Origin: Bryobacterales bacterium | GTDB taxonomy: Bacteria > Acidobacteriota > Terriglobia > Bryobacterales > UBA6623 | Length of the DNA stretch: 64,000 nt | NCBI GenBank assembly: GCA_965216545.1 | Contig: OZ244172.1 | Span: 1,670,763 to 1,734,762, forward strand | Direction: 5' to 3' | Shown here: positions 25,004-64,000 of the stretch, piece by piece | How the letters are laid out: the number at the start of each line of letters is the position of its first letter | Position numbering within the stretch: position 1 is the stretch's first letter | Program-made: the position numbers and the translations under genes | Notes under the pieces: generated by a model | Databases searched by the model: none | The model's input: the letters and a program-made list of their open reading frames with translations, nothing else | Told to the model about the DNA's origin: nothing

Positions 25004-27136
25004 CTACTCGAGAACCAGGTAGGCGCTGTCCTGGTAGACGACCGTCTGCAGCCCGTGCTGCTCGGCGGCCGCACGCAAGGCTTCGCCGGTGGGACTGGTG
25101 GGGAGAACCAAGTATTCCGGGCCCGACGCCTGGATGACTCGGCCGATGAGCTCGGCCTTGGCGTCCGACATCGGCCCGCGAAGCTCGATGCAGCGAAATC
25201 GAAGCGGATCGCGAGCGTAGCCGAGCGCACAGTTGCCCACGGCCAGGGCGTCTTGCTCAGGCGCCATGCGGGCATTGAGAAACTCGACCGAGGCGTAGCC
25301 GGACAGCATGGCGCGCAGGTATTGATCGCGGTCGAGCTGACGCGCGAAATAGCGCAGTTGGATCGGGTTGATCTCGAGCAGCAGCGCGGGCAACGCGGCG
25401 AATGAGAAGCAATACGCAAAAGCCGCTACGGCGATGCGGCGCACCCAGCGATTGGCAGAGTCCGCGAGCGCCTCGACACGGTGCGCGGTCAACAGAGTCA
25501 ACAGGAATAGCAGCGGACCGCCATAGCGCACCACGCCCCAGCTATAGATCCAATAGACGCCGAAGAGTGCGCAGAACACCAGGCAATCGCGCTCGTTCGC
25601 CGAACCCTCCCGGCGGCGCAGCAGCAGCCACGAGGCGGAGAAGAAGAGGAGGTAGAAGCCGAGCGGATTGTCCGACGGCCCCTCGTTGGTCAAGCGGCCG
25701 CGGAAGTGCGCGATCCACGGATAGCTAATCCGGTCGAGCCAAGGGGTGCGGCTCATGCCGCCCACCGCCGGCAGCGCTGTCGCCGCATACTCCACGCCAG
25801 CAGGGAATACCGGGTTGCCGGTGGCGAGCCAGGTCCTCAGGTGCCAACTGAAGCCGACCGCCAAGCACACCGCGGCCATCGCCGCCCCCAACCGCCAGCG
25901 CGCACGCTGGCGCCAGAGGCGCCCGAGGGCGAGCAGGCCCAGCGGAACAGCGCCGAACAGCGCAACGTGTTTCGTCCCGAAACAGAGCCCGAGAAAGAAA
26001 GCGGCAAGCAGCAGGCGGCGCCGCGGCTGGCCGTCGCGAGCGGCGATGACGCAGAGCAAGGTCGCGAGCTCGAAGTAGGTCAGCATGCTGTCGTTCTTGG
26101 CGATGGCGCCGCTCCAGCTCAGCACGGGAATCGTCATCCCGGCGGCTAATCCCGCCACGGCCGCCGTGCGGGAGAGACCGCAGCGGCGGCCGATGGCGAG
26201 CAGGGCGAGCCAGGCGAGCAGGGCGAACAGCGGTGAGATCAACTGGGCGGCCGGTTGGCCGGCCAGCGCCCAAACCGCCGTCAGCAACGCCTCGAACGAC
26301 TGCGGATAGTAGAAGTAGGCGGCGGAATGCCCCAACGAGAACAGTCTGCGGCTGCCTTCCTGGTAGACCCCGGGCAGGATGGGCAGCGGCGTGAGCTCGC
26401 CGGTCGCCAAATAGTGGCGGGCCGCCGGCATGTGGAACGAGATCGGGTCGGTCGCGGTGGCCGGCGCCATCGCCGCCAGCCACATGGCCGCTAGAAACAG
26501 CGGAAGGAAAGCGACCAAGACCGCGATCAGCGGCGAAGATCCGCGTGCGACCTCGCCCCAAGCGCGATCGAGCCGGCGTAGGGCGCGCCAAGCTTCAGGG
26601 ATGCGGCTGCGAAACGCCGCCAGGGCGCCAGCGATCAGAGCTGCGAACAGCCACGGGTCGAGCAACCCGGAGAGTCCGAGCGCGATGAGGGCCAGGATCC
26701 ACAGCCCGATTCCAGTCCCGGTCGGCAGAGCCAGGCTCTCGGCAGCGGACGCCCCGCCAAGCCCGAGCCGGCGCAAGGCGGCCGACCCGGCGGCGTAGCA
26801 GGCCAGCGCCCACACGCCTACGACGATCAACGCTAACGGCTCCTGGACGAGCGTTACGACGACGGCGAGAGCAGCGGCGAGACGCAACTCGCGCCCGCGC
26901 CACGCCGGCGGGCAGAACCGATGGTAGAGCCAACCCGCCGCCGCGAGGCTGAGCAGGACCGCGACGATGGCCGGGCCGACCCCGGGTCCGGTATCTCGGA
27001 AGTACCCCAGGTGCCAGCCCAATGGCCCTAGCGTGAGCGCCAACCCGGCGCACGCCCAGGCGAGCCATAGCACGTGCACCGCGGCCCGGCCCAGCGGCGG
27101 ACGCGGCTCGAGCTGCGATGGCGTCGCTGAGCTCAA
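25004..27136 (-). CDS. Large polytopic membrane protein, possible GT-C fold (PMT/ArnT-like) glycosyltransferase with C-terminal soluble domain
   Basis: More than 12 hydrophobic helices. Loop 'TDPISFHMPAARHYLATGE' resembles the first periplasmic loop of GT-C enzymes. The functional call is weak. Confidence 0.6.
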   Translation of the reverse strand: MSSATPSQLEPRPPLGRAAVHVLWLAWACAGLALTLGPLGWHLGYFRDTGPGVGPAIVAVLLSLAAAGWLYHRFCPPAWRGRELRLAAALAVVVTLVQEPLALIVVGVWALACYAAGSAALRRLGLGGASAAESLALPTGTGIGLWILALIALGLSGLLDPWLFAALIAGALAAFRSRIPEAWRALRRLDRAWGEVARGSSPLIAVLVAFLPLFLAAMWLAAMAPATATDPISFHMPAARHYLATGELTPLPILPGVYQEGSRRLFSLGHSAAYFYYPQSFEALLTAVWALAGQPAAQLISPLFALLAWLALLAIGRRCGLSRTAAVAGLAAGMTIPVLSWSGAIAKNDSMLTYFELATLLCVIAARDGQPRRRLLLAAFFLGLCFGTKHVALFGAVPLGLLALGRLWRQRARWRLGAAMAAVCLAVGFSWHLRTWLATGNPVFPAGVEYAATALPAVGGMSRTPWLDRISYPWIAHFRGRLTNEGPSDNPLGFYLLFFSASWLLLRRREGSANERDCLVFCALFGVYWIYSWGVVRYGGPLLFLLTLLTAHRVEALADSANRWVRRIAVAAFAYCFSFAALPALLLEINPIQLRYFARQLDRDQYLRAMLSGYASVEFLNARMAPEQDALAVGNCALGYARDPLRFRCIELRGPMSDAKAELIGRVIQASGPEYLVLPTSPTGEALRAAAEQHGLQTVVYQDSAYLVLE

Positions 27137-30839: not shown

Positions 30840-31718
30840 GTGGCTGTCCTCGCGTGCGAGCACATCAAGAAGATGCGCGGCGGTTCGAGCGCGCACTTGT
30901 TGCTCGCCGAGGATGGCCGCTATTACGTGGTCAAGTTCCGCGACAATCCGCAGCACGCGCGCATCCTCGTCAACGAGCTGATTTGCTATGTACTGTTGGA
31001 CTACCTCGGGCTGCCGACGCCGGAGTGGACGATCGTCGACGTTCCGGACTGGCTCGTCGAGGGCACGCCTGAGATGACGCTCGAGTTTGGCAGAGACTCG
31101 CGACCGTGCATGCCGGGGCTGCACTTCGGCTCACGCTACCCCGTGGATCCGGCGCGGCAGGCGGTCTACGACTACGTGCCGTTGAGCTTGCTGCGCTTGG
31201 TGGTCAACCGCGAAACATTCCTGGGCATGGTCGCTTTCGACAAGTGGGTCTCCAACGCAGACGGACGGCAGGCGATCTTCTTCCGCGCTCGCGCCGGAGA
31301 GTGGCTTTCGCCCGAGCGGCTCGAAGCGGACCCCGAACATGGACCAAGGTCTCTGGTTTACGTCGTCAACATGATCGACCACGGCTTCGCGTTCAATGCG
31401 CAGCATTGGGACTTTTCTGAGAATCCTGAGCAGGGCCTCTATACCAGGCGGGAGGTCTATGACGGCGTTCGGGGATACGACGATTTCGAGCCCTGGCTGA
31501 GCCGCATCCTCAACATGCCGCCGGCTGTGCTCGACGACGCTTTCAAGTACGTGCCGACGCAGTGGTATGAGCGCCAGTGGGATGAGCTCGAGTCGCTGTT
31601 GGAGCGGCTCTATGCGCGCCGGTCCGAGACGCCGGAGCTGATTCGCAAGAGCAAGCTCGCCGCGCGCGATCCGTTTCCTCAATGGCGGCTCGCAGCCGCT
31701 TCGAAGGGGGCGCGGTAG
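30840..31718 (+). CDS. HipA-like (protein-kinase-like fold) kinase family protein
   Basis: Motif order of a HipA/PI3-4K-like kinase. Gly-rich 'KKMRGGSSAHLL' (aa 11-22). 'YYVVKF' Lys (aa 28-33). 'FDKWVSNADGRQAIFF' (aa 133-148), compare HipA 'DGHAKNF'. 'MIDHGFAF' (aa 178-185, DxG Mg-binding-like). GTG start with GGAGG 5 nt upstream. Confidence 0.75.
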   Translation: MAVLACEHIKKMRGGSSAHLLLAEDGRYYVVKFRDNPQHARILVNELICYVLLDYLGLPTPEWTIVDVPDWLVEGTPEMTLEFGRDSRPCMPGLHFGSRYPVDPARQAVYDYVPLSLLRLVVNRETFLGMVAFDKWVSNADGRQAIFFRARAGEWLSPERLEADPEHGPRSLVYVVNMIDHGFAFNAQHWDFSENPEQGLYTRREVYDGVRGYDDFEPWLSRILNMPPAVLDDAFKYVPTQWYERQWDELESLLERLYARRSETPELIRKSKLAARDPFPQWRLAAASKGAR

Positions 31719-32510
31719 ATGGCCGAGCTCAGCCGCTACTACTACCGTTTGCTGCGCTACGTCCCGCGCGCGGAGGCTGGCGAGCTCTACAACGTTGCGG
31801 TGCTCTGCTACGACGAACGAGGGCGCGTCGTCGACGCCCGCTTTACGCCCGATTTCGATCGCATGCGCTGCAACCCGGCCGCCGACCTGGAATTTCTCGG
31901 ACGACTTCGCGGCGAGTTCGAAGACGCCCTGATCCTCGGGGAAGGCTTTACCGAGTACGCCACGGAGCTGACGGACCCAGAGCGGAATGATTTCGACGCG
32001 ACCGAGCCGAAGGTTTTTGGGACGACCGATCTATCCTCATGGATCGTCGACTTCACCGCCCGCAAGTTGGCCACCCAGCCGCCCCTCGAAGACGGGCGGG
32101 CGGAGAGGAGCCGCGGCGTGGGCCGAAGCGCGGTGCGGCATCGCATGAGCGAGACCTTCGCGCAACACGGCCTTTTTCTCAACGGGCACGGTATGCAGCG
32201 TGATGTACACGTCAAGTACGGAGAGCCGGTCGATGAGTTCGTTTTTGACTTCGGCTATGCCAGCCAGACGAAAGAGCAGCACTTTTTGCAGGCGATGGGC
32301 CTGCGGGGCGCCAAGACCGAGGCTCGCAGCTTGATTCTGGTGCTGCAGGAGTGCGGCGGCGTCGGGGAGCTAACCGTCGTAGCCGACGACGCGCTGGGAG
32401 ACGACGTCCGCAACATGCTCAGCGTGCGCGGCGTCGGGGCGGTCAACTTGTCCGCGATCGACACCTACGCCGGCACGATCCGCGAAAAGATGGGGCTGGG
32501 CCCGCGGTAG
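31719..32510 (+). CDS. DUF3037 domain-containing protein
   Basis: ATG directly abuts the kinase stop codon (TAG 31716-31718, ATG 31719-31721). The N-terminus 'YYYRLLRYVPRAEAGELYNVAVLCYDERG' is the DUF3037 signature as I recall it (y.y.lRYvPd..rgEf.NvGvvl). The C-terminal half is unrecognised. Confidence 0.7.
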   Translation: MAELSRYYYRLLRYVPRAEAGELYNVAVLCYDERGRVVDARFTPDFDRMRCNPAADLEFLGRLRGEFEDALILGEGFTEYATELTDPERNDFDATEPKVFGTTDLSSWIVDFTARKLATQPPLEDGRAERSRGVGRSAVRHRMSETFAQHGLFLNGHGMQRDVHVKYGEPVDEFVFDFGYASQTKEQHFLQAMGLRGAKTEARSLILVLQECGGVGELTVVADDALGDDVRNMLSVRGVGAVNLSAIDTYAGTIREKMGLGPR

Positions 32511-33485: not shown

Positions 33486-34376
33486 CTACCAGGTCGCCTC
33501 GGTTCCTGCGATCTCCTCGAGCCACTTGACGATCGACCAGTTGTCGCCTTCGGGGAAGCGCGAGACGCCGGCCTGGAACATCTCGTAGGCGGCGCTGGTG
33601 GCGAACATGGCCGCGCCAGCCTCCCGGGCGACGCTCATCGTGATGCCGAGGTCCTTGTACATGGTGCCGATGTGGCTGCCGGTGTTCTCGAATTTGCGGT
33701 CTAGGATCAGGCGCGCGCAGTTCTCGAACAGCGGGCTGCCAACAGCGCTCGACTGGATGACGTTGAACAGAGTCTCGCCCTTGACTCCGGCTTTGTGACC
33801 CATCACGAGCGTCTCGAAGGTGGCGGCGAAGGTGCAGCCGATCATCGCTTGCAGCGCGGCCTTGACGGTCTGGCCTTGGCCGATCTGCTCGCCGACGTGG
33901 AAGACGACCTTCGAGATCGCGTCGAATGCGTCACGGTTGGCTTCGAGCGCGTCCGGCGCGGCGGCGGTCATCAAAGTGAGGGCGCCGTTCTCCGCTCCGG
34001 GCTTGCCGCCCGATACAGGGGAGTCGATCAGCCTGACGCCACTGGCGGCCAGCGGCTCTTCGAGCGCGCGGACCTCCGAGGGCAAAATCGTAGCGGTGAC
34101 GATGACGGTATTCCCCGACTCCAGACCTTCGAGCAGGCCGCCCGGGCCGAGCACGGCCTCGTGCGCCTGCTTCCCGTTGAGCACCATTACGAAAACGGTT
34201 TCGCACGCTGCGCCGAGCTCGGCGCAGCTCTCGGCGCGCTTGCCGCCCGACCCTTCGAGCATCGCCATCCGCTCGTCGCGCGGGTCGTAGCCGTGGACCG
34301 TGAAGCCGGCCCCAAGCAGATTGCGGGCGATGCCGATGCCCATGTCGCCTAGTCCGATGACTCCGAGTGATCTCAT
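33486..34376 (-). CDS. NAD(P)-dependent 3-hydroxyisobutyrate dehydrogenase-family oxidoreductase (sugar-acid dehydrogenase type)
   Basis: Start set at '[31 protein letters not shown]' (Rossmann GxGxxG at the N-terminus). '[15 protein letters not shown]' block. The upstream 57 codons of the track ORF were rejected. Confidence 0.85.
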
Positions 34377-34528
34377 CCGATATATCCGTTCTCGCGGCGC
34401 GCGCGCGATGGCAAAGGGGCAGCATAGCGCATCCATGCGCCGCCGCTGCGCGGTTGCGAGCGGGGCGAGCCGCGGGCCACACTGAACGGGGCGTGCGGCG
34501 GCTGGTCGCGCGCGGAAAAACCAACCTG

Positions 34529-36847
34529 ATGGCGCGCATCGTTCCAATCCTCGTTCTGTTTGCGGTGCTGCCGCTGACCGGCCAGCCGGCGCTGTGGTAT
34601 GACGAGCCCGCCGCCGGATGGCTCGAAGCCTTGCCGGTCGGGAACGGACGGCTGGGCGGCATGGTGTTCGGACGTACCGAAAAGGAACGCATCCAGCTCA
34701 ACGAGGATTCGCTCTGGGCAGGCTCGCCGATCGAGCGCGATCGCAAAGGCGCCTACGAGCATCTGCCCGAGATTCGGCGGCTGCTGTTCGCGGGCCGCTA
34801 CGTCGAGGCCGAGCAGCTCGTCGAGCGGGAGATCATGGGCGAGCGCATCTATCCGCGGGGATACCAGACCCTTGGCGATCTGTGGATGGAGACGGATCCG
34901 GCGCAGAACGTGGCGAGCTACCGCCGCGAGCTCGATCTAGGCGCCGGCATCGCTCGTACCGAGTGGCGCGATCGCGGGATGCGTCTCGAGCGCGAGGTAT
35001 TTGCCAGCGTGCCGGCGCAGGCGTTGGTGGTGCGCTACGGGAGTGATCAACCCGGGGGCGTTTCGGTGCGCTTGCGGCTGGACCGCGTGACCGACGCCGA
35101 GTCGTCGGCATCCGGCGATACGTTGATGCTGCGAGGGCGCGCGACCCATGATGGCGAGCATCCCGGGGTGCGCTTCGAAGCGCGCGCCCGCGCCGTCGTC
35201 GAGGGCGGCAGCGTCGTGGCGGAAGGCGACGCGTTGCGGGTGCGCGGCGCGGACGCGCTGACCGTTGTGTTGGTCGCGGCTACGAGCTATCGCGGCGAGC
35301 AGGCGTTGGCCGAGCTTGGCAAGCGGCTGGACGCCGTCTCGAAGCGAAGTTTCGACGATCTACACGCAGAGCACGTGGCCGACCACAGACGTCTATTCGA
35401 CCGCGTCTCGCTCCAGCTCGGCGGCGAGGACCAGCGCGCGAAGCCGACCGACGACCGCTTGGCGGCGATGCGCGCCGGCGGCGACGACCCGGACCTGCTG
35501 GCGACTTACTTTCAGTACGGCCGCTACCTGCTGATGGGCTCTTCGCGGCCTGGCTCGCTACCGGCCAACCTGCAAGGGCTGTGGAGCCACCACATCGAAG
35601 CGCCGTGGAACGTCGACTACCACATCAACGTGAACGTGCAGATGAACTACTGGCCGGCCGAGGCGACGAACCTCTCCGAGCTGCACGAGCCGTTGTTCGA
35701 TCTGATTGACAACCTGCGCCCGCGCGGGCGCAAGACGGCGCGAGACGTCTACAATGCGCGCGGTTTCGTGGCGCACCACACGACCGACGCATGGTGGTGG
35801 ACGAGCCCAATCGGGCGCGCCCAATATGGCATGTGGCCTACCGGCGCAGCCTGGCTGGCGGCGCACCTGTGGGAGCGCTACCTGTTCACCGGCGACCGGG
35901 AGTTCTTGCGCAATCGCGCCTATCCGGCTCTCAGAGAAGCGTCCGAATTCTTTCTCGACTGGCTCGTCGAGAACCCCAAGACCGGCAAGCTCGTCAGCGG
36001 GCCCTCAACATCGCCCGAGAACCCGTTCAAGACGCCCGACGGGCTGGCGCGGCTGACCATGGGCCCGGCGATGGATCAGCAGATCATCCATCAACTGTTC
36101 TCGAATACGCTGAACTCGGCGGAGGTATTGGGCGTCAACGACGATTTCGTACGCGAGGTGCGCGAAAAACGGGAGCGGCTCGCGGGCCCGCGGATCGATG
36201 CGGCGGGCCGGTTGATGGAATGGCCGGAGCCGCTGGAGGCCGGAAATCCCGGACATCGGCACATCTCGCACGCCTACGCGCTGCACCCGGGATCGCAGAT
36301 CACCTTGCGCGGCTCGCCCGAGCTCGCCGCTGCGATTCGCAAGACCATCGAGCACCGGCTGGCCAACGGGGGCGGCCACACCGGCTGGAGCCGCGCGTGG
36401 CTCATCAACTTGTGGGCGAGGCTGGAGGACGGCGAAAAGGCGCACGAGAATCTGCAGGCGCTTTTGCGCAAGTCGACGCTTTCGAACCTCTTTGACACCC
36501 ACCCGCCGTTCCAGATCGACGGCAACTTCGGCGGCACGGCGGCCGTCGCCGAGATGTTGCTGCAGTCGCATGCCGACGAGCTACACCTGTTGGCGGCTCT
36601 GCCGCGGGCCTGGCCGAGCGGCTCGGTTCGCGGGCTGCGTGCGCGGGGCGGCTTCGAAGTCTCGATCGATTGGCGGGACGGCAAGCTGGCGCGCGCCGAG
36701 ATCCGCTCGCTGCTCGGAGAGCGTTGCCGCCTGCGCGGTGCGCAGCGAGTGACGAGCGAAGGCCGGCCGGTCGCGGTCGAGCGGCGCTCGGACGGCGCGG
36801 TCGAATTTCCCACCGAGCGAGGCGCCGTCTACGTCGCCACGCGCTAG
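34529..36847 (+). CDS. Glycoside hydrolase family 95 (alpha-L-fucosidase-like)
   Basis: Start at '[19 protein letters not shown]' (signal). '[27 protein letters not shown]...[13 protein letters not shown]' is the GH95 N-terminal signature. '[18 protein letters not shown]' and '[19 protein letters not shown]' catalytic-domain blocks. Confidence 0.85.
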
Positions 36848-36906
36848 TGTAGAGCGGACGAGATGACCGGGGATCTCTTTGCGCCGGTAGGCGCATCGCA
36901 AGAAGC

Positions 36907-37082
36907 AGCCACGGGCGCCACGCCCGTGGCATCCAGTGGAGCCGCCCCTTCACTCGGCCCTGGCAAGGGCCTGGCTACAACCGAGCGGCGCCCCCTGAAG
37001 GGCGCTCCCGGAATATCAGCGCCTTCCCGGATCCACGGGTCTCACCCGAGGCTCTTTCCTGCCTGGCGCCTTTGGCGCCCAA
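36907..37082. repeat. Multi-hairpin GC-rich extragenic repeat, copy A (inverted relative to copy B at 63024-63195)
   Basis: The reverse complement aligns with 63024-63195 over about 175 bp at roughly 70% identity by eye. Shared blocks: TTGGGCGCCAARGGCGCC, GGCAGGAWAGAGCC, CGGGTnnnACCCGTGGA, GCGCCCTnnnnGGGGCGC, AGCCAGGCCCTTGYCAGGGCCGA, CGGGCGYGGCGCCCG. Confidence 0.7.
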
Positions 37083-37141
37083 TCATACTGCGTCCGCTTC
37101 TGGCGCCTGCAGGGACTGCGGAGCCAGCACGCTAGCCCGCG

Positions 37142-38143
37142 ATGAACCTGGGAATCGACAACGTCCTGGGCGCCGGCTTGCTCGTCGCCACGCTCTGCGG
37201 TTGTGCAGGGACGAGCCAAGACTTCCAGTTCCGCTACGCCCACGCGCAGCCCACCGGCCACCCGCGCAGTGTTTCGATGGAGCTCTTCGAGCGCGAGCTC
37301 GAGAGTCGCACCGGCGGACGCATTCAAGTGGAGAACTACTTCTCCGGCGTGCTGGGCGGTGAGCGCGACCTGATGGACATGGTGGCGACAGGCGTGTTGC
37401 AGGGCACCCGCGGCGGGCTGTTCGCCGACGCCAGCCCAAAGTACGCCCTGTTCCAGCTCCCTTTCTTGGTAGAGAACTGGGACCAGGCGCTGCGGCTGGT
37501 CTACAGCGACCTCGCCGACCGCATCAACCGCAGCGCCCGAGAGCACGGCTTCTACGTGCCCGCCTGCGGCATCTCGCAAGGCTTCCGCGCCCACACCAAC
37601 AGCGTGCGCCCGATCCTCGGCCCCGAAGATCTCGCCGGGCTCAAGATGCGCGTGCCGCCGCAAGAGGTCTACGTGGAAACGGCGCGCGCCTTCGGCGCCA
37701 ATCCCCAGGAGATCGCCTTTGTCGAGGTGTATCAGGCCATCCGCACCGGAGTGATCGACGGTCAAGACAATGCGCTGTCGAACATCTGGGATTTTCGGCT
37801 GCACGAGGTGCAGACCTACTTGACGATCACGAACTACTCCACCGGCCCCGACCCGTTCCTGATGAATCTCGAATGGCGCGAAGCGTTACCGCCGGATTTG
37901 CAGCAGACCCTCGACGAGGTCGCGCGCGAAACCATCCGCTACAGCGACCGGCTCAACCGCGAGACCGAGAGCGACTATCTCGAGAGGCTCTCGCGGGAGA
38001 TGGAGATGGCTAAGATCGACGGCGAAGGGCTCGAGCGATTTCGGCAGAAGGCGCAGTCGGTCTACGAAACGTTCATCGCCAAGGGCTACTTTACGCGGGA
38101 AGAGGTCGAGGAGGCGCGGCGTATCGCGCGCGGAGAGCGATGA
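37142..38143 (+). CDS. dctP: TRAP transporter substrate-binding protein (DctP family), lipoprotein-type signal
   Basis: 'LLVATLCGCAG' signal. 'FRYAHAQPTGHPRS', 'LPFLVENWDQA' and 'MRVPPQEVYVET' are typical DctP blocks. Followed by DctQ/DctM. Confidence 0.85.
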   Translation: MNLGIDNVLGAGLLVATLCGCAGTSQDFQFRYAHAQPTGHPRSVSMELFERELESRTGGRIQVENYFSGVLGGERDLMDMVATGVLQGTRGGLFADASPKYALFQLPFLVENWDQALRLVYSDLADRINRSAREHGFYVPACGISQGFRAHTNSVRPILGPEDLAGLKMRVPPQEVYVETARAFGANPQEIAFVEVYQAIRTGVIDGQDNALSNIWDFRLHEVQTYLTITNYSTGPDPFLMNLEWREALPPDLQQTLDEVARETIRYSDRLNRETESDYLERLSREMEMAKIDGEGLERFRQKAQSVYETFIAKGYFTREEVEEARRIARGER

Positions 38144-63023: not shown

Positions 63024-63195
63024 TTGGGCGCCAAGGGCGCCCGGCAGGATAGAGCCACGGGTATAACCCGTGGAGCTGGGGAGGCCCCGCTTCTGCGGGC
63101 GCCCTGCAAGGGGCGCAGCTCAGCCGCAGCCAGGCCCTTGTCAGGGCCGATCCGGAGGGGCGCCATTCGATTCCCCGGGCGCGGCGCCCGAGGCT
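63024..63195. repeat. Multi-hairpin GC-rich extragenic repeat, copy B
   Basis: Aligns with the reverse complement of 36907-37082 (see copy A). Homology ends at about 63195, where lower-GC IS-type sequence begins. Confidence 0.7.
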
Positions 63196-64000
63196 TCCAT
63201 GAGGAGGTTCGGTGTTGTCAAGTCGAGGGTCTAGGCTGGGGTTGTTTTCCGTTGAGACGAGATCAGGCTTCCATCCGCACTCGGGTTGCGGCCGAATCGA
63301 TGTGGGCCGCGGTGCTCGTTGTGGTCCGATTGACTCGTTCGTGGCGGCGCTGCTCGCTGTTTTTCGGCCTTGTTTTGGGGCCTGCCACGGGGGCGCAGTC
63401 GCCGCCGGACTCGTCTTCCAAGATCGATACCCTTTCCTCCGATTCCCTCTGTGTCGCCTCCGTCTCTGTTCCTCCTCCTTCTAAGAAATTCTTCTTGCCG
63501 CTCTCGCTTACGCCGCTTGCGCGAGCCCGATCGTCGGGTCGAAGTCCTCGTCGGTGCGCCACAGCGTGTGCAGCAGCACCGCCAGCTTGCGCGCCACCGC
63601 CACCGCCGCGCGCTTCTTGCCGCGCTTGCTCGTCCCGGCCAGCTTCAGCCCCCAACGCTTCAACGCGCAGTCGAGCCCATTCCGGCCCAGAACGTAGTGG
63701 GCGCACTGCACCAAGTAGCGCCGCAACATGCGGTTGCCCGTCTTGGTGATCCCCAGCTCCGGCTTGCTCTCGCCCGATTCCTTGCGGGAGGGACGAAGGC
63801 CGACCACCGCCCCAGCCGCCCGCGAGTTGCTCAATCTCGCCACGTCGCCGTCGAGCTCGAGCACGAACGTCAGCGCTGTCAGCGGCCCCACCCCACGCAC
63901 GCTCAGCAGCCTCTTGGTCTGCTCTCGATAGCGCTCATGAGAGAGTTCGAGCACCTGTTTGTCGTAAACCCTGATCTGGGCGCTCATCTGCTCGATCACT
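63196..64000 (-). mobile_element. IS110-family insertion sequence, 3' portion (continues beyond the window)
   Basis: Contains the C-terminal half of an IS110-type transposase plus a 312-bp compositionally distinct (CT-rich on plus, lower GC) non-coding tail. The left boundary is inferred from loss of homology between the two repeat copies. Confidence 0.6.
63508..64000 (-). CDS. IS110-family transposase, C-terminal part (Transposase_20 domain); N-terminus outside the window
   Basis: 'LLSVRGVGPLTALTFVLELDGDVARLSNSRAAGAVVGLRPSRKESGESKPELGITKTGNRMLRRYLVQCAHYVL...AAVAVARKLAVLLHTLWR' matches the conserved IS110 C-terminal domain. The ORF is open to the window edge. Confidence 0.85.
   Translation of the reverse strand, partial: VIEQMSAQIRVYDKQVLELSHERYREQTKRLLSVRGVGPLTALTFVLELDGDVARLSNSRAAGAVVGLRPSRKESGESKPELGITKTGNRMLRRYLVQCAHYVLGRNGLDCALKRWGLKLAGTSKRGKKRAAVAVARKLAVLLHTLWRTDEDFDPTIGLAQAA

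Follow-up and report, generated by a model that had tools for sequence, protein, structure and literature searches.

What kind of element is the GC-rich, hairpin-laden repeat of about 175 bp that occurs twice, in inverted orientation, in a 64,000-nucleotide stretch of DNA from a Bryobacterales bacterium (GenBank assembly GCA_965216545.1, contig OZ244172.1, positions 1,670,763 to 1,734,762; this whole stretch is hereafter the window)? A first-pass annotation, made from the letters alone, had offered three options: a cluster of extragenic palindromes resembling the repetitive extragenic palindromic sequences and bacterial interspersed mosaic elements (REP/BIME), a miniature inverted-repeat transposable element (MITE) or a structured RNA family. 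The first of these came out as the best fit, and the other two were weakened. On balance, we favour the reading that the repeat is a lineage-specific, REP/BIME-like palindrome mosaic serving as a landing site for an RNA-guided insertion sequence (IS) of the IS1111 type. It fits best because the repeat is non-coding and intergenic, forms a GC-rich mosaic of palindromes with conserved stems and linkers, occurs in both orientations and lies at an IS insertion site.

Two copies of a palindrome mosaic

The repeat and its parts are located as follows. Each pair of coordinates gives copy A on the forward strand and copy B on the reverse strand.

36907-37082 (+): copy A of the repeat, between the stop codon of a GH95 gene (36847) and the start of dctP (37142)
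63195-63024 (-): copy B of the repeat, antisense to the porin gene and 18 nt beyond its stop codon (63005)
36908-36930 (+) and 63190-63176 (-), the latter extended 63193-63173: hairpin H1
36956-36971 (+) and 63148-63133 (-): hairpin H3
36988-37005 (+) and 63116-63099 (-): hairpin H4
37036-37048 (+) and 63070-63058 (-): hairpin H6
37050-37063 (+) and 63056-63043 (-): conserved linker GGCTCTTTCCTGCC
37065-37079 (+) and 63041-63027 (-): hairpin H7
36881-36894 (+): small hairpin GCGCC-GGTA-GGCGC between the GH95 stop codon and copy A, read from the sequence

The whole-length, inverted alignment of 36907-37082 with 63024-63195 that the first-pass annotation had drawn by eye holds: the two copies can be aligned end to end, and a count over the pairwise alignment gave 134 identical columns out of 176 (76%). 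With copy A as query, BLASTN over the window's distal 24 kb returned a single match (78% over 177 nt, E=4e-35). A profile built from the pair and run over the 64-kb window with nhmmer recovered the two copies alone (E=1e-55 and 9e-53), the next match having an E value of about 1, and neither the profile nor single-hairpin motif scans found further copies within the window. Two conserved blocks of the repeat each occur twice in the window, against none expected from 100 shuffles. The similarity breaks off sharply at either end, where unrelated genes follow; these are the GH95, dctP (DctPQM) and porin (Porin_O_P) genes already named by the earlier reader. A chance resemblance of GC-rich sequence, or the remnant of a local segmental duplication without element-level identity, might be considered in a genome of 66% G+C in which short GC palindromes are common, but the alignment statistics, the sharp ends, the unrelated flanking genes and the motif counts refute it. 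We give this explanation practically no weight, and the similarity stands well clear of what shuffled GC-rich sequence yields.

All five stems listed in the first-pass annotation are present in both copies. The copies differ in only 2 of 64 stem columns, compared with 8 of 19 loop columns and 32 of 93 columns in the remainder (Fisher test of stems versus the rest, p=2.4e-7), which bears out the earlier remark that stems are kept while loops vary. The only two stem differences make up a single compensatory pair in H1 (A-U to U.G), 1 among 32 pairs, which keeps pairing on the forward strand only; the remaining stem pairs are invariant. In addition, the copies differ by two 2-nt indels. The stems are under constraint, that is, selection or conversion holds their sequence while loops and spacers drift. 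As far as two sequences, which give almost no covariation power, can tell, it is the stem sequence that is conserved and not pairing alone. The linker is likewise kept in both copies (GGCUCUWUCCUGCC when written as RNA). Folded as a single strand, the repeat reaches -89 kcal/mol in the forward direction (z = -2.7) and -101 kcal/mol in reverse (z = -2.5). H1 (CGGGCGCC...), H7 (GGGCGCC...) and H4, which has the same palindrome inverted, are variants of one palindrome, and H3 and H6 are distinct from it; the element is, therefore, a mosaic. Elsewhere in the 64 kb, only one GGCGCC-n3-GGCGCC was found, at 25909. This isolated H7-like palindrome (GGCGCC-AGA-GGCGCC, 25909-25923) lies inside the open reading frame (ORF) 25004-27136 (PMT_2-like) and is probably a chance occurrence in GC-rich sequence.

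The similarity between the copies begins at AGCC (36907 and 63195), the same point at which copy B meets the IS. With the IS adjoining copy B where the similarity starts, the two copies do not show where the repeat family begins on its 5' side. Further repeat sequence may lie to the left of copy A; the small hairpin 36881-36894, upstream of the point at which copy B is interrupted, is a candidate.

The repeat is non-coding and intergenic. No frame of it reaches a gene-like G+C content at third codon positions (GC3), with values of 0.68-0.76 versus about 0.9 in local genes, and the coding hypothesis was rejected on the low GC3 of every frame and on the 2-nt indels that offset the copies. Two spurious ORFs run across the copies without a coding signal: 36863-37135 (+; 90 codons) and 63024-63749 (+; 241 codons), the latter also spanning the non-coding region of the IS. 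Annotators should mask both copies as non-coding repeat sequence and call neither ORF a gene. Copy A is intercistronic (GH95-dctP) and co-directional with both genes, while copy B lies just 3' of the Porin_O_P gene and antisense to it, so that both orientations relative to the flanking genes are represented.

Relatives of the repeat were sought in several collections. Rfam 15 gave no match on the whole window at the gathering threshold, and at E values up to 10 it gave just weak, unrelated matches, far below each family's gathering score. Nothing similar to the repeat was found by blastn in a plasmid collection. Exact-motif scans returned 16 loci in a genome collection with one genome per species (motif GGCTCTNTCCTGCCNGGCGCC), 16 loci in the JGI metagenomes (motif ACCCGNGGCTCTNTCCTGCC) and 10 loci in viral contigs; all 42 match only the 19-21-nt motif, that is, by chance, in scans that used exact matches to overlapping blocks of the repeat's 3' domain, which diverged relatives would escape. 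Translations of the repeat were compared with protein databases in searches aimed at spurious ORFs over other copies; the forward frame had no candidates and the reverse frame only unrelated tandem-repeat proteins. Four orthologous dctP loci (L017-L020, 70-81% protein identity) have a different synteny and no repeat element. In the nearest of these relatives (L018 and L020), dctP adjoins a divergent NAD_binding_2/NAD_binding_11 dehydrogenase gene, unlike the window, where the GH95 gene and copy A (33486-37142) are placed between the dehydrogenase gene and dctP. This placement suggests a local insertion or rearrangement. The neighbouring HipA_2 (HipA-like kinase) and DUF3037 genes, at 30840-32510 (+), are possibly a toxin-antitoxin-like pair.

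The insertion sequence beside copy B and its putative guide RNA

The features on the far side of copy B are the following.

63508-64000 (-): fragment of an IS110-family transposase (Transposase_20), C-terminal 163 codons; the gene runs off the window end
63256-63415 (-): putative seek/bridge RNA, conserved in six lineages, with a fold supported by covariation
63384-63391 (-): guide-like segment CCCGUGGC, on the 5' strand of the first internal loop, antisense to the H1 foot
63265-63274 (-): guide-like segment AUGGAAGCCU, identical to the 10-nt IS/repeat junction 63200-63191
63192-63221 (-): IS right end and junction with copy B, with TTGACA (63221-63216), ...AACCT (to 63205) and CCTCATGGAAG-CC (63204-63192)

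The neighbour of copy B is an IS110-family insertion sequence of the IS1111 type, of which the 3' third lies in the window. Its transposase fragment matches Transposase_20 (PF02371, E=1.7e-18), has a strong coding signal from 63510 upward on the reverse strand and contains the motif GLRPSRKESG. This motif follows the GL-P----S(t)G pattern described for IS1111-group transposases (PMC11187229). The fragment stops short of the N-terminal DEDD (RuvC-like) catalytic domain, for which more distant homologues of the transposase carry PF01548. About 300 nt of non-coding DNA separates the transposase stop codon (63508) from the IS end and copy B. Taken as a unit, the partial IS (63205-64000, reverse strand) comprises the transposase C-terminus, a structured 3' non-coding region and TTGACA, and has no Rfam match.

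IS110/IS1111 elements use bridge or seek RNAs, which in the IS1111 group are encoded downstream of the transposase gene (PMC11187229; PMC11208160). We compared the non-coding region with the DNA around the closest homologues of the IS, which are metagenomic fragments, 66-81% identical, and found it conserved in six lineages. Its fold has an outer stem GUCCG/CGGAC and a stem GGCGGCG-CUGC/GCAG-CGCCGCC around an internal loop with a hairpin GGCC...GGCC. A second hairpin, GCGGCC/GGCCGC, has invariant strands on its flanks. Across the alignment, 92.5% of the cells are paired, five pairs are changed on both sides, and the covariation score was reached by 0 of 500 shuffles. These figures give moderate support to the view that the IS encodes a structured RNA downstream of its transposase gene.

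Copy B starts exactly where the IS stops. In the window and in the related fragments L038/L039, L053 and L041, a conserved ...CTTGACA-n11-CCT-CCTCATGGAAGC(C/A) is followed by lineage-specific sequence; the relatives in metagenomes share the terminal ...CATGGAAGCC and then enter different hairpins. The hairpin that opens the flank is CCTCGGGCG-CCG-CGCCCGGGG in the window, where it is H1, CCCCGGGT-AAA-ACCCGGGG in L038 and CCCCG-TTTA-CGGGG in L053. The right end of the IS is 63205 or, more likely, the CC at 63193-63192. The invariant TTGACA lies 11 nt from ...CCT, and a junction promoter is described for ISEc11 (PMC11187229); the spacing from TTGACA to CCT would suit an ISEc11-like junction promoter, but not an IS end at GCC.

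The fragments L038 and L039, which come from different samples, have no difference over 844 positions of the IS and at least 4 differences in the next 85 nt, followed by complete divergence. Just beyond the IS, both carry an element of about 70 nt with two hairpins, CCCCGGGT-AAA-ACCCGGGG and CCCCGGGT-TTC-ACCCGGGG, which differs between the contigs (L038 847-931; L039 838-913). Beyond it the two flanks are unrelated, with the caveat that both contigs end there and assembly noise may contribute. The pair of fragments has the appearance of two insertions into different members of a REP-like family, which would belong to another organism and be targeted by the same IS lineage. In two further fragments, the right end of the IS1111-type element adjoins another IS: an IS256-type element (Transposase_mut) in L037 (~925-2323) and an IS4/IS5-type element (DDE_Tnp_1) in L041 (~760-1564). 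Either the IS targets the termini of other IS elements, or the region is a hotspot of nested insertions.

Two segments of the putative RNA match the DNA at the junction, in opposite senses. The loop segment CCCGUGGC is the reverse complement of GCCACGGG in copy A (36908-36915) at 8 of 8 positions and of GCCTCGGG in copy B (63194-63187) at 7 of 8, with one U.T mismatch. The other segment is a direct match: it corresponds to AUGGAAGCCN, which equals the junction in four lineages, and its positions 9 and 10 covary with the flank (guide/flank CU/CT in the window, CC/CC in L038, CC/CC in L053 and A(U)/A(C) in L041). In shuffles of the non-coding region, these junction matches have p values of about 0.02-0.06 each.

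The antisense segment also changes between lineages: the window, L038 and L053 have CCCGUGGC, CCCGGGGC and AAUGGGG, which face the flanks GCC(A/T)CGGG, GCCCCGGG and CCCCGTT, respectively. The sequence right after ATGGAAG is CC-TCGGG in copy B, CC-CCGGG in L038 and CC-CCGTT in L053. Read from the alignment of the lineages, the loop strand remains the reverse complement of the flank, with two compensatory double changes and one G.U pair between L038 and L053; the L038 antisense match taken alone has a p value of about 0.1 in shuffles. In L041, the antisense match to the flank is found in the opposite strand of the loop. The antisense and sense matches overlap at GCC, with the antisense match positioned 5' of the sense match. 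The same order, with the top-strand match on the 5' side of the bottom-strand match and an overlap of both in the target, is described for seekRNAs of the IS1111 group (PMC11187229).

These comparisons lend moderate support to three statements about the predicted RNA: one strand appears to repeat the end of the IS together with a CC core (AUGGAAG-CC), a second strand appears complementary to this core and the 5' foot of H1, and both segments seem to follow the flank in related IS copies from other organisms, where that flank is invariably a GC-rich hairpin's foot. In the terms of the bridge-RNA model (PMC11208160), AUGGAAGCCU would behave as a left-donor guide, covering 7 nt of the IS end and the CC core, and CCCGUGGC as a right-target guide, covering the core and the right target. 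A candidate left-target guide, in which loop 1 matches AGCAGC of copy A (36904-36909), was set aside as coincidental, as it falls in an invariant, paired part of the RNA. Further 8-nt matches (ATCTCGTC/GACGAGAT in the window and GCTGTTGA in L038) were within chance expectation. The 5' arm of H6 (TCCACGGGT; 37033-37041 and 63073-63065) has a CCACGGG heptamer that is also found in H1 of copy A, and each repeat thereby has a further complement of the IS guide CCCGUGG.

Landing site, mobile module or structured RNA

If the repeat is a REP/BIME-like landing site, its hairpins would form between cistrons and at gene 3' ends, either in the transcript or for short times in the DNA. In such places, elements of the REP type can have a stabilising or terminating effect on RNA. 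The H1 foot would be a sequence-plus-hairpin site recognised by the complex of recombinase and guide RNA, its 5' side forming the right half of the IS target, and the repeat would offer the IS a harmless intergenic place to land. Copy B would then be an occupied site, and copy A, with its perfect guide pairing, a potential empty one. There is precedent for such a relationship: REPs or hairpin-gated intergenic repeats are the insertion sites of ISPa11, ISPpu9 and ISPpu10 (PMC11187229; PMC12288879; bioRxiv 10.64898/2026.03.19.712850), the last of which depends on a hairpin beside its target (bioRxiv 10.64898/2026.03.19.712850).

Several points weigh against this account. Just two copies of the repeat are documented, both in the 64-kb window, and the scans of public collections gave chance matches only. 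No RAYT-type gene (REP-associated tyrosine transposase) was found among about 25 window ORFs scanned. The terminator scan showed no U-tract terminators in the sense relevant to the upstream genes, and a role in RNA stability or termination is one that we infer from position only. The resident guide mismatches its own copy B flank at one position, and single guide/flank matches are individually only modestly significant (p=0.02-0.2 in shuffles). The left junction of the IS, like the left-target guide and the subterminal repeats, lies outside the window, and the interruption of a longer repeat by the IS is presumptive. Finally, L037 and L040 lose homology 11 nt earlier, after ...CCT, where L037 continues into the IS256-type element and L040 into unrelated DNA, and this makes the exact end of the IS ambiguous.

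The alternative that we take most seriously, although we consider it unlikely, is that the repeat is itself mobile, either as a MITE or as a passenger moved in trans by an IS110/IS1111-type recombinase in the manner of ssr9. Copy B would then be a module still joined to the IS, and copy A a solo module. The discrete boundaries, the position of copy B directly downstream of the IS right end and a 7-bp terminal inverted repeat (GGGCGCC...GGCGCCC) that can pair end to end are all in keeping with this, and ISPpu9 offers a precedent in its small RNA module downstream of the transposase gene, with three solo copies and IS-end-like boxes (PMC12288879). The terminal pair, however, belongs to hairpins H1 and H7, and the 5' boundary of the repeat is uncertain. 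We looked for a target-site duplication at copy A and found no flanking direct repeat, and the 3' end of the repeat is unlike the IS right end. The comparison with related IS copies also argues for a target and not a passenger: relatives with 71-80% protein identity and well-conserved non-coding regions have unrelated sequence after the junction, and L038 and L039 share an identical IS but differ in the hairpin flank, which therefore did not move together with the IS. Moreover, antisense pairing of a guide with H1 is expected of target DNA, not of donor, in the bridge-RNA model (PMC11208160). In favour of mobility, H1, H6 and H7 all have CCACGGG- or CGGGCGCC-type feet that resemble half-sites. 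A narrower version starts from these feet: the mosaic could be a hitch-hiking, non-autonomous element that mimics IS1111-type half-sites and is moved or copied in trans by the RNA-guided recombinase. We regard this as a long shot, ranking below both the general mobile account and the RNA gene considered next. If true, such an 'RNA-guided MITE' would be analogous to, but distinct from, ssr9 of ISPpu9.

It is somewhat less probable than a mobile module, in our estimate, that the copies are two paralogues of a structured RNA, either a gene or a cis-regulatory family, read from the strand that places H1 ahead of the other hairpins. The conservation of five stems next to variable loops, the stability of the fold in z-score terms, the conserved linker and the fact that the sole double stem substitution preserves pairing on the forward strand only would all suit such an RNA. 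Yet the stems are conserved in sequence, with that one compensatory pair only and two sequences without statistical power, and there is no Rfam match even at the most permissive E value used. Sigma-70-like consensus scans, which are weak for a GC-rich organism, found no promoter at the repeat copies, and the terminator scan found no forward-strand terminator there, the sole terminator-like site being H1 of copy A on the reverse strand. The contexts are also inconsistent, because the position of copy A would allow a dctP leader, whereas copy B is directed into the 3' end of a porin gene that converges on it, and the exact-motif scans revealed no homologues in other genomes.

The landing-site reading thus remains the one that we prefer. 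The repeat alone is a routine feature of GC-rich bacterial genomes; the value of the locus lies in a natural, unannotated case of an RNA-guided IS1111-type element paired with a hairpin target. Taken across several uncultured lineages, the co-variation of guide and flank would make a small comparative data set on the natural retargeting of bridge or seek RNAs. It would also point to the foot of a GC-rich hairpin as a preferred context, in line with the 'structure-gated' results for ISPpu10.

Comparison with known systems

The repeat resembles the REP/BIME of enterobacteria and pseudomonads in being non-coding, intergenic or 3' of genes, and present in either orientation, as well as in its build, a mosaic in which linkers join short, imperfect, GC-rich palindromes whose stems are conserved. 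It differs from them in having no sequence similarity to them and in its organisation: one fixed order of five different hairpins over about 175 bp, whereas REP/BIME are variable clusters of one or two units of about 35 bp. REPs have a conserved GTAG-type head, which the repeat lacks, and an associated RAYT gene, which is not seen among the window ORFs scanned, and REP/BIME are defined by many dispersed copies per genome (tens to hundreds). The RIME and ERIC/IRU families are closer in layout, being intergenic mosaic repeats of 100-200 bp with several palindromes in a fixed order, restricted to particular lineages and located in transcribed intergenic regions. Their sequences are unrelated to the repeat described here, and they too are defined by tens to hundreds of copies. 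A further likeness to REP/BIME is that the latter are insertion sites of the IS110/IS1111 elements ISPa11, ISPpu9 and ISPpu10 (PMC11187229; PMC12288879; bioRxiv 10.64898/2026.03.19.712850).

The ssr9 module of ISPpu9 in Pseudomonas putida KT2440 (PMC12288879) offers a different parallel, namely a structured non-coding module of about 100-200 nt just downstream of an IS110-family transposase gene, together with solo copies. On either side of ssr9 are A'/B' boxes, which are copies of the IS ends; the module is complementary to an antisense RNA encoded by the IS and travels with or without ISPpu9 (PMC12288879). In the window, by contrast, we found no such boxes or complementarity, and no box resembling the IS right end at the 3' end of the repeat; the IS guide would pair with the element as a target, and related IS copies have different flanks.

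The IS itself compares most directly with the members of the IS1111 group that have a seek or bridge RNA, such as ISEc11, ISPa11 and ISKpn4 (PMC11187229; PMC11208160). It shares with them Transposase_20 and the GL-P----SG motif, a long downstream non-coding region that folds into stem and internal-loop modules, a top-strand match that lies 5' of the bottom-strand match and overlaps it in the target, TTGACA near the right end and the foot of a hairpin repeat as target. It differs in that its nearest relatives are metagenomic fragments of at most 81% identity and in that only its 3' third is seen. The repeat is without a described relative by sequence, yet its kind, and the relationship between IS and target in which it takes part, are well known.

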